From Actinobacteria bacterium UBA7524 (lineage in GTDB: Bacteria; Actinomycetota; Coriobacteriia; Anaerosomatales; UBA912): a stretch of DNA of 64,000 bases. A program made the position numbers. The DNA is taken from contig DLMY01000009.1 of assembly GCA_002478275.1 (NCBI GenBank), forward strand, positions 18,991 to 82,990. The letters run 5' to 3'. This document shows, piece by piece, positions 45,701-48,700 of this stretch (positions are counted from its first letter, which is position 1; the number at the start of each line of letters is the position of its first letter).

Positions 45701-48700
45701 GTGCATCCCGTGGCGGTGTTTCGCTCTCTCGGCGGCACGCCGCACGTGCTCGGCCCCCGAGACATGACACAGTGTCCGGTACGTCTCTTCGGAAGCTCCC
45801 TTCAAATCCACTCGCCAGACATCTATCAGGTTCCCGAGTAGGTCCAGCCCCGCCTCGGTGATGTAGCCGTTCGTGACCATGACAGTGAACAGGCCACGCC
45901 GACGGCACTCCGCTGCGACATCGATGACGTATTCCAGCCAGATGACAGGTTCGTTGTAGGTGAACGCCACGCCAGGGCACCGATAGCGTTGGGCCATCTC
46001 GACGACCATGACAGGTGTCAACGTGTGCAGCTGGTCCGCATCCTCCTCGGGAGTGGCTCTGCTGATGCGCCAGTTCTGGCAGTGCCCACACTTCATGCTG
46101 CAGCCGACGCTCCCGATGGATAGGACAGCTGCACCCGGGTTGAAATGGAAGACCGGCTTCTTCTCGATGGGATCGGCCGCGATCGAAGCGATGCGACCAT
46201 AGGTCATGGCCGCCAGCGTGCCGTCCACGTTGCGCCGCACGCCGCAGATACCTGATGCACCCTCGCCTATCAAGCATGCATTCGGGCACAGGCCACATCG
46301 GATGCGATCACCCTCTGGTGCCCAGAGCTGTGCCGTGTGCATACTGCCCCCTTATCCGGCCGACAACCTCACCTGGTCCCGGCCGGACTCCTTGGCCACA
46401 TATAGCGCCCGATCGGCGGCCTCGAGCAAGTCGAGTGGGGTGCCGTCAGGCACTCTGAGCGCTGCCACTCCTATCGAGATCGTCACGCTGATGGAAGGGG
46501 GATCCCCGTTCACGGGAACAGGCCTTCGCGCAATGGACTCCCTGAGCTTCTCGGCGACCGCGAAAGCGGCGGTCTTGTTCGTGGCAGGAAGAACAAGGGC
46601 GAATTCGTCACCACCGTACCTCACCGCGATATCAACATCGCGGACATCGGAGCACAAGGAGGTGGCGACCGATTTAAGCACGTGGTCTCCAGCGAGATGC
46701 CCGTACGTGTCGTTGACACGCTTGAAGCCATCGATGTCGATCATGAGCAGGGAGAGCGGTGTTTCGTAGCGCAACGCCCGTGCGACTTCCTCGACGATCC
46801 TGTCGTCAAATGCTCTTCGATTCCAGAGGCCCGTCAGTGCATCGAGAGTCGCTGTCCGTTCCAGTTCCTCGGCCACATTGGCGCAGCGACGGCGCTGCAA
46901 CGGGAAGCACATGTCCCAGCTCGAGTTCTTGTGGTAGATGGCCACAGCGTGTGCCTCACAGGTCTGGTATCCGCATGCCCCGCAGTCCAGCGTCTCATCA
47001 CGCGTCTCGAACTCACCTTCGGCGAGGATGAGGTCGATCTCCTCGGCAGGTGGTGTTACCTGATCGACTGGGGACGCACGGAACGACCTGAGTAGCGACA
47101 CCGTCGGCATATGGTCGAGTATCTCTCTGGTGGTCGCGTGCGACAGCGGCGCGGAGTCCCTCTCGGCGGCCATGATGTTGCGCTTGGCGAATACCGACAT
47201 CCCGGAGTTCACGGCGGGTCCGTCGATGCAGCCCTCGCAGTTGAGCATGTCGATGACCGCCGGCGCGGTCTCCCCGTCCATTATCGCTTTGAGCAGGTCA
47301 TCGAGCTGGCGAAGGCCGCGAACCTTCACCACCGTCTCGTCGATGGCCGTACGCTCGGCAAGCGTCTTGCGCGGAAAGCCGTCCGTGAGGGAGATCTCCT
47401 TGACCGGTTGCGGGCGCCTGGATCCCGCACGCGTACGACGACCGGTCTTCGGTGGCGCTCCCTGGAGCAAGCGCCCCAGTTCGGTGAAGTCTATGACGGC
47501 ATCGACAGCGCCCTCGAACTGAGGGTCGAAGGCCTCGTCCTTCCTCGCGTAGCAGGGCGAGACGTAGACCACCGCAGTACCTTCGGGATACATCGCCTTC
47601 ACGAGCCTGGCCTGGGCCACATAAGGCGGAACGACCGGCACGAGTGCACTTACGAGCCGAGGATAGAAGAGCCGGACCCAGTCGACCGCGACGGGACACG
47701 TGGAGCGGAGCGACAGCGGCGCACAGGGACGTGTGTGATCTCGCTCGTAGGCGAGCGCGACGAGCTCTTCGCCGAGCAGCGTGCTCTCCACCGCGAAGAA
47801 GCCAGCGTCTTCGAGCACGCGCTCGACTTCTTCGGGGGACCGGGGATGAAGGGCCGCCACGAACTCCGTCGCGAGCACCGCGACGACGGGGCGTCCACTG
47901 ACGAGCAGCTCTCGTACGCTGGCGGTATCGTCACGCACGCCATGCCCGCAATTACCGCACTCCGAGACGCAGAGGCCGCACTTCACGCAGCGTTCCTCGA
48001 TGATCTCGGTCCGGTGGTCCACTACTCGGATCGCACGCGCGGGGCAGTACCTCACGCAACCCCAACACTCGCGGCACGCGTCCTCATGGTTGGTGATCAG
48101 GAATCGGTCGGGTGCAGCAGAAGCCCCTCGCACCGCGCCGTCTGCCGGGCGGGTCATCTGTGAGCGATCACTCATCTCCACCCCCAACCGCTCGGCCCTC
48201 GACCCCCGCACCGAGCGTTCGTCCCAGTCCACTCCTCCGCACCGCGATCGACAACGGTAGGCCCATACCATACACCACGACCGCCTGCCCGATACAGACG
48301 GTGACAAACCCGAACGCGTACATGGCCGGCCAGCTGCCTTCAAGATCGAGCCCGAGCACAGGGATCTTATAGAGCCCCAGTCCGGCCAAGATGAAGGGCA
48401 GGTATGCCGGGACGATAACCGCATTGCTCAGCACCGGACCCGCGAGAGCGAGCACCGGACGCTCGCGCATCCGCCACGTCCAGGCGACACCGATCAGTGT
48501 AGCCACCGAACCGAACACCATGTCGAGTAGACCGATCGGCCCGACCTGGGTCAGCATGAATCCGTTCGCCACCGCGGTGCCGATCGTCAGCCCAGGGAGG
48601 GCCGCCGGGGTGACGAGCGCGAGCACCGTGAGGCTCTCGCTGACACGGAGTTGTATCGGCCCCCAGCCCAGGTATCCCAAAAACTGCACCGCGACAAGCG

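Follow-up and report, generated by a model that had tools for sequence, protein, structure and literature searches.

A hydrogenase-derived iron-sulfur module fused to a GGDEF domain in the Anaerosomatales: a probable redox or oxidant sensor

In HydDB, the [FeFe]-hydrogenases of group C comprise histidine-kinase-linked, chemotactic and phosphatase-linked subtypes. The three subtypes are reported to carry differing regulatory elements. A Cx2Cx4Cx16C motif is described as a trait shared by the group C and group D (M2f and M2e) subclasses (PMC8163306). HydDB also recognizes a [NiFe] group 2c, designated 'diguanylate cyclase-linked (putative)', for which the same logic has been proposed as for the protein described here, from a hydrogenase-type sensor to c-di-GMP, but is an unrelated metalloenzyme that is 'linked' to a cyclase, whereas ours is a single fused polypeptide (PMC5037454). 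A third point of reference is Nar1, which is reported to show strong homology to [FeFe] hydrogenases and to bind two [4Fe-4S] clusters (PMC3721309). In eukaryotes, Nar1 carries Fe-S clusters for cytosolic Fe-S assembly and does not act in signalling. It is not known to have a Cx2Cx4Cx16C motif or a GGDEF domain.

The protein studied here has the same order of modules as TmHydS of T. maritima (group C/M2f) and TamHydS of T. mathranii (group D/M2e). As described for both groups, it has two N-terminal [4Fe-4S] motifs, an H-domain and a Cx2Cx4Cx16C motif, and the Cys that serves as proton relay at 299 is missing. It resembles TamHydS in the Ser at M353, the Leu at M497 and the absence of a PAS domain (PMC8163306, PMC11803613). 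The Ser at M353 probably reflects convergence with group D, because most members of the clade to which the protein belongs have Gly or Thr there. Unlike the group C and D proteins, it has a GGDEF output fused straight to the module and carries the replacements P231T/S, S232E, S323P, Q325Y and K358R (CpI numbering), and it comes from an order in which the queries used detected neither HydEFG nor a group A hydrogenase. Our literature search returned no paper on the fusion of an [FeFe]-hydrogenase-like H-domain to GGDEF, in agreement with a preliminary description of this locus, which had found none linking sensory hydrogenases to GGDEF. The GGDEF-linked clade, its replaced pocket, the absence of maturases in its tested genomes and the loss of H-site cysteines are new here.

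Gene model and domain architecture

All coordinates are positions in the window, the 64,000-nucleotide stretch of DNA that was analysed, and the order is Anaerosomatales, class Coriobacteriia (GTDB). The gene lies whole in the window (46352..48187, minus strand; stop codon 46352-46354) and encodes 611 residues, as judged from the open frame (46352-48424, minus strand) and from orthologue lengths. This form begins at TTG 48187, with other possible starts at GTG 48181 (+2 codons) and ATG 48175 (+4 codons); all three precede the first Cys motif, and the start overlaps the 3' end of the upstream QueT gene. The collection's gene call (P0002, 544 residues) starts 67 residues later and would remove the first cluster motif. 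The longer form, preferred in the preliminary description because homologues backed it, is borne out by orthologues of 588-616 residues that include Fer4_10.

The N-terminal ferredoxin-like domain (residues 32-80; 47948..48094, minus strand; Pfam Fer4_10 at 32-77) contains two Cx2Cx2Cx3C motifs, C38/41/44/48 and C67/70/73/77, each of these eight cysteines being kept by 114 or more of the 118 orthologues compared. The H-domain (residues 100-324; 47216..47890, minus strand) was delimited with Pfam Fe_hyd_lg_C (E 2.9e-27; 96.3 bits, cut-off 22.1) and a profile alignment to CpI. Its cluster cysteines C164, C212, C317 and C320 correspond to CpI C300, C355, C499 and C503 and are invariant in 128 relatives and in all 118 orthologues; the L3 motif has the spacing CxGC, one residue less than in CpI, which is common to all sensor-module relatives. 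The Cx2Cx4Cx16C motif (C402, C405, C410 and C427), present in 118 of 118 orthologues, falls within residues 400-429 (46901..46990, minus strand; Pfam FeS PF04060, E 7.6e-7), and each of the 16 cluster cysteines is retained in at least 114 of the 118. Residues 430-445 (46853..46900, minus strand), the gap between the Pfam limits of FeS and GGDEF, form a linker that may serve as a signalling helix. Pfam places no PAS domain, a group C trait, after the C-terminal cluster, and the GGDEF domain begins about 17 residues past C427.

The GGDEF domain (residues 446-605; 46373..46852, minus strand; Pfam E 1e-47, 162.3 bits; TIGR00254 179.6 bits) has an intact motif at residues 525-529 (46601-46615, minus strand), which reads Y-G-G-D-E-F in the sequence, and an RxxD I-site, R516-x-x-D519 (R-D-V-D; 46631-46642, minus strand), five residues before it. 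All 118 orthologues retain the I-site, and about 16% of them have a degenerate GGDEF motif. Judged by its sequence, the domain has the features of a diguanylate cyclase, and catalysis is predicted. Architecture, motifs, intact GGDEF and I-site had all been noted in the preliminary description and were reproduced by Pfam, NCBIfam, the sequence itself and the 118 orthologues. The same is true of its structure matches: among solved structures, the GGDEF domain matches WspR (2.9e-38) and PleD (1e-34), and the T. maritima HydA alpha subunit is matched with E 3.3e-10. In addition, a family profile matched CpI at 2e-50 and 8a6t_A at 2e-59. The best 120 of 556 homologue clusters (E<=1e-10) all combine Fe_hyd_lg_C with GGDEF, and every name given among them is 'diguanylate cyclase' except for one 'sensor kinase'. 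Conservation among the 118 orthologues reaches 97% or more at 142 of the 611 positions, with all cluster cysteines and many H-domain positions among them.

The di-iron pocket, its clade and the maturases

The pocket in which the di-iron site of an H-cluster would sit is formed here by A106-T107-E108, T163, P187-P188-Y189, S210, R215 and L315. CpI A230-P231-S232 is thus replaced by A-T-E, S323-P324-Q325 by P-P-Y and K358 by R215, while E361 is retained. Each of the replacements listed above is fixed in at least 97% of the 118 orthologues, as is each of A106, E108, T163, P187, P188, Y189, S210, R215 and L315, although across residues 30-440, the sensor part, these orthologues are only 59-71% identical to the query. 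P231, S232, S323, Q325 and K358 are described as lining the [2Fe] cavity or touching the distal CN (PMC10147833). With a carboxylate at 232 and K358 gone, the pocket would be expected to suit an anionic cofactor with cyanide ligands poorly. When compared with the H-cluster [FeFe]-hydrogenases, the protein has the homology and the four cysteines, but not the [2Fe]-pocket residues, and no HydEFG over cut-off was detected alongside it.

The gene occurs in 89 of 101 genomes of the order and in 24 of its 25 families; in a sample of the class, it was found in 69 of 73 genomes of the order, whereas none of the 88 genomes from the remaining Coriobacteriia orders had it, which upholds on a larger set the restriction to one order within the class reported earlier (49 of 52 and 0 of 68). 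Beyond the class, the GGDEF-linked clade extends to other Actinomycetota and to Gemmatimonadota. In a tree of 105 rows, made up of unnamed sensor-module relatives and three group A outgroups, the present protein groups with the bacterial sensor modules, and monophyly is recovered for the 25 GGDEF-linked rows that have Glu at 232 (SH-aLRT 99, rising to 100 when the tree was reduced). The term 'Nar1-like' of the preliminary description can therefore be kept as an analogy of cofactor content, as far as that is predicted, but not as kinship; any likeness to Nar1 or NARF would be one of outcome, not of family.

Relatives at 27-43% identity have kinase, PAS and sigma-54 outputs. The canonical relatives carry outputs of these kinds and a pocket of the form A-P-S, S-P-M, G-P-C and K-K-x-E. 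Because group A enzymes and canonical sensors have A-P-S/A and K358 in common, we regard the altered pocket as the derived state. The polarity is argued from this shared state since a nested position of the clade inside the canonical sensors, which we had considered, was dropped when an AU test of nested against sister placement gave p 0.138 (46-row reduced set, LG+G4). Outside the order, pocket composition varies widely inside the same clade, and many of its members have A, M, Q, R or E in place of K358. In one Gemmatimonadales member (L033), three H-site cysteines are replaced by D, N and A, the fourth being uncertain, and the Fer4 motifs, the C-terminal motif and GGDEF are still in place. 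Fe_hyd_lg_C scores are 129-181 bits in the five canonical-type relatives scanned, 96 here and 38-73 in Gemmatimonadota.

Maturases were sought in 101 genomes of the order (73 of them at least 90% complete) with profiles that matched in the controls, B. thetaiotaomicron and T. maritima. HydE, HydF and HydG each exceeded their cut-off in 0 of the 101, which extends to a larger sample the earlier finding for HydG and adds HydE, for which the preliminary description had not searched. The protein's own genome (83% complete) gave no HydG and no HydE match and, for HydF, generic GTPases only (none above 85 bits; cut-off 325), in keeping with the absence of HydF and HydG reported for it before. HydG-like matches of 161-191 bits in five genomes of the order were not accepted as maturases. 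The single match that was scanned, at 191 bits, proved to be ThiH (443.9 bits), and the remainder cover the same span of the profile. One genome of the order (G052) has a HydE-like C-terminal fragment of 98.9 bits at a contig edge. With the sensor protein as query, neither a group A hydrogenase nor a second H-domain was found in the order.

Outside the order, 50 module-bearing genomes were scored for maturases, MAGs making the absence calls soft. At least one maturase was present in 28 of 37 genomes with a canonical pocket; the 9 of 37 without one were mostly MAGs. Among genomes with an altered pocket or from the same lineages, maturases were found in 0 of 12 (10 scored, plus 2 fragments without pocket columns), and none of the tested genomes of the GGDEF-linked Glu232 clade had one. 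The fiftieth genome, that of L090 with its D-P-S pocket, carries HydE, HydF and HydG. The genes hydG, hydE and hydF often adjoin the canonical sensor gene (e.g., in G113, G138, G135, G129, G124 and G133), and group A hydrogenase genes adjoin it in G138 and G144. An altered pocket and missing maturases go together through about two events in evolution, one in the Glu clade and one in the L042/L053 pair, so the link lies beyond statistical testing.

What the module may sense

We consider it probable that the protein carries [4Fe-4S] clusters only and controls the synthesis of c-di-GMP as a sensor of redox state or oxidants. It would be a cytoplasmic one-component sensor, descended from the 'sensory' [FeFe]-hydrogenases, from which the di-iron part of the H-cluster has gone. 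Four [4Fe-4S] clusters are predicted, two of them N-terminal, one on C164/C212/C317/C320 and one on Cx2Cx4Cx16C. The state of this chain would be altered by the low-potential electron pool, or through damage by O2, NO or another oxidant, and the altered state would act through the short linker after C427 on the GGDEF domain and so on the level of c-di-GMP output. Product feedback may be exerted at the R516xxD519 I-site, and the neighbouring PocR-GAF-HD-GYP protein probably degrades c-di-GMP. The cluster content, the absence of [2Fe], the signal and the direction of regulation are what we infer from these comparisons. We favor an Fe-S sensor over an H2 sensor, as did the preliminary description, because the [2Fe]-lining residues are replaced in at least 97% of the 118 orthologues, because the altered pocket marks a GGDEF-linked clade whose tested genomes are without maturase, and because one clade member (L033) has dropped H-site cysteines. 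Since the cysteines and the pocket are under strong purifying selection in the order, however, the H-site evidently matters and may hold more than a plain cubane.

It is unlikely that the protein is a true H2 sensor, in which an H-cluster or related di-iron site at C320 would be built by a HydEFG-independent pathway and H2 binding would set c-di-GMP synthesis, tying biofilm or motility choices to the H2 handled by [NiFe] hydrogenases. The genome does encode [NiFe] hydrogenases, so H2 is physiologically relevant, and the four H-cluster cysteines and E361 are retained in a strictly conserved pocket, in a module that is descended from, or sister to, maturase-linked sensory hydrogenases. Missing maturases alone are insufficient to argue against H2 sensing because most archaeal genomes with [FeFe]-hydrogenases are reported to be without HydEFG, with an alternative pathway proposed, and active [FeFe] hydrogenases without maturases are reported from most archaea, Giardia and Entamoeba (PMC11216029); the maturase-less canonical genomes and the G052 fragment also count against our preferred reading. 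The same is true of TamHydS, whose C-terminal cluster is reported to keep its redox state under H2 (PMC13104023). In addition, group D is described as binding its cofactor despite Ser at M353 and Leu at M497 (PMC8163306), and [NiFe] group 2c has been proposed as a diguanylate-cyclase-linked H2 sensor (PMC5037454). Against H2 sensing, positions that line [2Fe] or touch the distal CN have become Glu (232) and Arg (358), with A, M, Q and E at 358 in sister lineages; the H-site cysteines have been lost in one lineage whose protein is otherwise intact; and the order yielded neither HydE, HydF or HydG above cut-off in any of the 101 genomes sampled nor, with the sensor protein as query, a match to a group A hydrogenase or second H-domain.

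It is also improbable that the rebuilt pocket holds another ligand or cofactor beside the cubane, for instance a different metal site or CO, NO or sulfide, which would make the protein a new gas or small-molecule sensor. Fixation of the pocket at 97% or more, in spite of only 59-71% identity, is more in keeping with a functional site than with a cavity that has been filled. We likewise think it doubtful, for the pocket as defined by A-T/S-E, P-P-Y, S-P-C-x-A-R-K and L315, that it forms a new ligand or cofactor site and so defines an unrecognized class of hydrogenase-derived gas or small-molecule sensors coupled straight to c-di-GMP. The evidence indicates no specific ligand, the variation of the pocket across the clade outside the order and its disappearance in L033 argue against one shared ligand, and the radical SAM neighbour, an AmmeMemoRadiSam family member, occurs only within the order. 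Least credible is a relic sensor half without a signalling role; the protein would then be a cyclase that is always active or, in orthologues with a degenerate GGDEF motif, a c-di-GMP receptor. The degenerate motifs beside an invariant I-site and the falling Pfam hydrogenase scores through the clade speak for it. The conserved positions, cluster cysteines included, and the presence of the gene in nearly all families of the order speak against it.

A [4Fe-4S]-only sensor of this kind would make the clade a bacterial parallel to Nar1, with the hydrogenase scaffold reused without its di-iron site. The protein bears on how 'sensory' [FeFe]-hydrogenases relay their signal. With module and cyclase in one polypeptide, the output could be followed in vitro by enzyme assay. 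A natural control exists in canonical-pocket fusions (P0141, P0147, P0227 and L090, the last from a Desulfotomaculum MAG), which have the same Fer4, H-domain, FeS and GGDEF parts and lie elsewhere in the tree; the first three keep A-P-S, S-P-M, G-P-C and K-K-x-E, P0227 with an extra fused HD-GYP domain, and L090 has D-P-S in a genome with HydE, HydF and HydG. These fusions make stronger candidates for genuine H2-to-c-di-GMP sensing, and with the rebuilt-pocket, maturase-less clade they form a test and control pair, the maturase-bearing L090 in particular. The protein is conserved throughout its order, whose members are uncultured anaerobes, and its own 1.8-Mb genome encodes about 6-8 GGDEF proteins, this one included; it is therefore probably a main input to the c-di-GMP network.

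Genomic neighbourhood

Synteny at the loci of the order is conserved for the HD-GYP, QueT, radical SAM and DsbA-like genes, and no group A hydrogenase or maturase gene is among the conserved neighbours of the sensor gene. Directly upstream lies a QueT-family transporter (48168..48761, minus strand; Pfam QueT 114.5 bits), matched in 13 of 14 loci of the order that were checked. The PocR-GAF-HD-GYP (HD_5) protein (48853..50979, minus strand) was assigned by Pfam and has an NCBIfam c-di-GMP phosphodiesterase match of 146.8 bits, below the cut-off; it is likely a c-di-GMP phosphodiesterase partner. An HD-GYP match was found in 12 of the 14 loci, and HD_5 genes lie downstream in the Gemmatimonadota loci L030, L033 and L035. 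A look for RNA evidence across 45300-51000 gave no entry. Masked bases account for two oddities elsewhere in the window, a low-GC stretch and what looks like an insertion in a housekeeping gene close by.

A radical SAM gene of the AmmeMemoRadiSam type (45329..46342, minus strand; TIGR04337 at 316.6 bits, cut-off 220) follows 9 nt downstream and is present in 14 of 14 loci of the order, but in 0 of 5 loci of clade members outside it (L024, L030, L033, L035 and L057). Its candidacy as a cofactor maturase is unsupported, as it is a full AmmeMemoRadiSam member and is missing from those loci. The tight cluster ends with a DsbA/FrnE-like gene (44604..45296, minus strand; Pfam DSBA) that was delimited by reading TGA as U. 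The plain DsbA-like open frame matches DSBA without the N-terminal 25 profile positions, and the in-frame TGA falls within a U-P-F-C motif, making the product a candidate selenoprotein.

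The sensor cyclase gene and its neighbors

A single long open reading frame occupies window positions 46352–48424 on the minus strand, and its sensible gene is the 611-aa form (46352–48187), which begins at TTG 48187, where it overlaps the end of the QueT gene lying upstream. Alternative starts on the same strand, GTG 48181 and ATG 48175, lie at most four codons after this TTG, and the first Cys motif is downstream of all three. The preliminary description had preferred the longer start to the collection's later call, and we concur, as orthologues of 588–616 aa keep the cluster motif that the 544-aa call (P0002) cuts. 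Pfam places Fer4_10 at residues 32–77, Fe_hyd_lg_C at 100–324 (E 2.9e-27), the FeS motif PF04060 at 400–429, and GGDEF at 446–605 (E 1e-47); an RxxD I-site (residues 516–519) and a GGDEF motif (residues 525–529), intact in the window's copy, can be read from the sequence. NCBIfam gives the same domain picture, with all curated hydrogenase models far under cut-off (e.g., FeFe_hydrog_B1, 101.8 bits vs. 450), and the GGDEF half matches WspR (2.9e-38) and PleD (1e-34). The fusion of a hydrogenase-like Fe-S module and a GGDEF domain in one 611-aa protein, as originally described, thus stands.

The gene order PocR-GAF-HD-GYP, QueT, sensor-GGDEF, AmmeMemoRadiSam-type radical SAM, DsbA-like was kept, within the reach of each locus, at the 14 loci of the order that were checked (radical SAM matched in 14 of 14, QueT in 13, and HD-GYP in 12). 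In the window, the radical SAM gene (45329–46342, minus strand; TIGR04337, 316.6 bits) follows the sensor gene after a gap of 9 nt, and no AMMECR1 or Memo partner gene was found among the Pfam-scanned neighbors at 38–59 kb. The last gene of the cluster, DsbA/FrnE-like (44604–45296, minus strand), has an in-frame TGA within a U-P-F-C motif at the place of the redox-active CxxC; the plain ORF call (188 aa) begins past this TGA, and the product is a candidate selenoprotein. Two genes for GAF-HD-GYP (HD_5) proteins, one with a PocR domain (48853–50979) and one with a HAMP domain (56370–58946), both on the minus strand, are less than 10 kb apart and form, with the sensor cyclase, a local c-di-GMP island in a genome with eight GGDEF matches, six of them strong. 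Because HD_5 genes are found downstream of the sensor in Gemmatimonadota loci as well, the pairing of cyclase and phosphodiesterase recurs in two phyla, and in protein cluster P0227 the two are fused.

Distribution and relatives of the module

The sensor gene provides the only Fe_hyd_lg_C match in its own genome (1.81 Mb, 83% complete). Among 101 genomes of the order, representing 25 families and including 73 genomes at least 90% complete, the sensor half (residues 1–440) was matched in 89 genomes and 24 families, most matches being full length at 49–68% identity, with a few split or cut. In the class sample it was present in 69 of 73 order genomes and in none of the 88 genomes from other orders, which bears out the restriction to one order within the class previously noted.

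A search of 1.84 billion representatives returned 2775 relatives at E≤1e-3. Beyond the orthologues, proteins 27–43% identical span the entire Fer4, H-domain, and FeS module, and the 70 of 127 such proteins subjected to a domain scan all contained Fe_hyd_lg_C, with the FeS motif in 65 and outputs that included HATPase_c (25), HisKA (23), PAS (14), Sigma54_activat (9), and GGDEF (8). Across 128 aligned sequences, the C-terminal Cys and the four Cys of the H-site vary little or not at all, and the family profile matches solved [FeFe]-hydrogenases (8a6t_A, 2e-59; CpI, 2e-50). As described in two reports (PMC8163306, PMC11803613), the putative sensory groups C and D have two N-terminal clusters, an H-domain, and Cx2Cx4Cx16C but lack Cys299, as does the sensor module; the group D enzyme TamHydS and the 611-aa protein have in common a Ser at M353, a Leu at M497, and the lack of a PAS domain. 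With H2, the C-terminal cluster of TamHydS reportedly kept its redox state (PMC13104023).

Maturases and the H-cluster pocket

The source genome (83% complete) had no match to HydG or HydE, and its HydF matches were generic GTPases only. The failure to find HydG in the order, initially reported from fewer genomes, holds at 0 of 101 genomes over cut-off, and HydF and HydE were likewise each over cut-off in 0 of 101; the control genomes, Bacteroides thetaiotaomicron and Thermotoga maritima, were matched. HydG-like matches of 161–191 bits in five order genomes covered no more of the profile than its ThiH-like part and were rejected, the one scanned being ThiH (443.9 bits). One small caveat is a lone HydE-like C-terminal fragment (98.9 bits) at a contig edge of an order genome (G052:C34:1-429), which is followed by an esterase gene; HydF and HydG were not found in that genome.

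A one-genome-per-species scan yielded 542 confirmed relatives, of which the best 80, from many phyla, were kept, and maturases were sought in 50 of those genomes (loci L024–L060 and 13 picked for taxonomic spread). HydG was present in 25, HydF in 26, and HydE in 24, with at least one in 29; maturase genes often adjoin the sensor gene (G113, G138, G135, G129, G124, and G133), as do group A hydrogenase genes in G138 and G144. Pocket columns were converted to CpI numbering by profile alignment. The canonical sensor pocket reads A-P-S (230–232), S-P-M (323–325), G-P-C (353–355), and K-K-x-E (358–361), an exact combination found in 73 of 128 aligned sequences (66 with other outputs, four short forms, and three GGDEF fusions), whereas the order's proteins read A-T/S-E, P-P-Y, S-P-C, and R-K-x-E. 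These positions include, according to PMC10147833, A230, P231, S232, and S323, which line the cavity of the [2Fe] subsite, and K358, P324, and Q325, which are in contact with the subsite's distal CN. At least one maturase was found in 28 of 37 genomes with A-P-S proteins and none was detectable in the other nine, as compared to 0 of the 12 genomes whose pocket is altered or that carry fragments of those lineages (L024–L030, L033, L035, L057, L042, and L053). MAGs make up most of the genomes, and the link between pocket and maturases depends on about two evolutionary events. The second altered-pocket lineage, L053 (Dehalococcoidales chromosome CP070842) and L042, has a histidine-kinase-linked module with S-S-S at 230–232 and H or Y at M497; HydE, HydF, and HydG were not found in either genome, although one of the two is a chromosome in a single 2.3-Mb record.

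In a 105-sequence tree of the module, with three group A enzymes as the root (excluding fragments L029, L035, L089, and L103; L028, taken as a duplicate of L022 because their match statistics are the same; and outgroup candidates without a suitable ORF), all GGDEF-linked proteins with Glu232 formed one clade of 25 rows (SH-aLRT 99), with the order as a 13-row subclade (SH-aLRT 100). Other members of the clade are an 'Actinomycetes' MAG (L024), Gemmatimonadota L030, L033, and L057, and metagenome clusters P0133, P0134, P0136, P0142, P0153, P0191, P0243, and P0260; in many of these non-order members, A, M, Q, R, or E stands at position K358. The clade stayed monophyletic in a 46-row reduction of the tree (SH-aLRT 100), on which an AU test did not reject a sister position to the canonical sensors as a whole (p 0.138), and we therefore do not claim nesting inside them. 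The altered pocket can be polarized as derived in either case, since A-P-S/A and K358 are common to canonical sensors and group A enzymes. L033 has replaced H-site Cys with D, N, and A (the L2 Cys being uncertain) while retaining its Fer4 motifs, C-terminal motif, and GGDEF; its sisters L030 and L057 keep the Cys. The Pfam hydrogenase score drops from 129–181 bits in five canonical-type relatives scanned to 96 in the sensor gene, 66–73 in L030 and L057, and 38 in L033.

Proposed signal and output of the sensor cyclase

Taken together, the replaced pocket residues, the maturases not found in the order or in the clade genomes tested, and the Cys loss in L033 favor the original proposal of an Fe-S redox sensor rather than an H2 sensor, and a [4Fe-4S]-only sensor feeding a GGDEF cyclase is the best-supported, and probably the correct, explanation of these sequences. 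Such a protein would carry four [4Fe-4S] clusters, its H-cluster site cut back to the cubane alone, and would report the redox state of a low-potential electron pool, or oxidant damage, to the cyclase, with feedback through the I-site and an HD-GYP protein as partner. Nar1, described in PMC3721309 as a hydrogenase-like protein with [4Fe-4S] clusters only, is a precedent by analogy and not by family membership.

The main rival, true H2 sensing with a cofactor built via an unknown route, draws on the conserved Cys and pocket, on active [FeFe] hydrogenases without maturases in archaea and protists (PMC11216029), and on the [NiFe] hydrogenases of the source genome; we consider it unlikely. One [NiFe] large subunit of this genome (G000:C45:800-2269, minus strand, outside the window; 526 bits) has one in-frame TGA and probably belongs to a [NiFeSe] enzyme, and C45:26752-27897 holds another, shorter match of the [NiFe] type.

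Conservation was assessed in an alignment of P0001 and, from the 119 clusters that follow it, those at least 560 aa long (118 sequences in all, two having been too short). At least 97% conservation was seen at 142 of 611 positions, among them A106, E108, S162, T163, C164, P187, P188, Y189, S210, P211, C212, R215, K216, E218, D313, L315, C317, and C320, and each of the 16 cluster Cys is present in at least 114 orthologues; the pocket is therefore maintained and not decaying, although its composition should disfavor an anionic, cyanide-bearing cofactor. Its rebuilding as a new ligand site, which we consider about as unlikely as H2 sensing, would fit this conservation as well. Returning to the [4Fe-4S]-only sensor, its output may vary: I-site residues R516 and D519 are present in 118 of 118 orthologues, and the GGDEF motif is degenerate in ∼16% (G525 and E528 each retained in 99 of 118), so some orthologues may be c-di-GMP receptors instead of cyclases.

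Full-text literature searches turned up no report of an [FeFe]-hydrogenase-like module joined to GGDEF, in agreement with the preliminary description; HydDB (PMC5037454) lists a putative diguanylate-cyclase-linked group for [NiFe] enzymes only (group 2c). Canonical-pocket GGDEF fusions (P0141, P0147, and P0227 with L090) fall elsewhere in the tree, and the fusion therefore arose more than once. P0227 (796 aa) joins a canonical-pocket hydrogenase-like module to GGDEF and HD-GYP in a single protein, and the genome of its sister L090 (a Desulfotomaculum MAG with a D-P-S pocket) has all three maturases; this type is a candidate true H2-to-c-di-GMP sensor.
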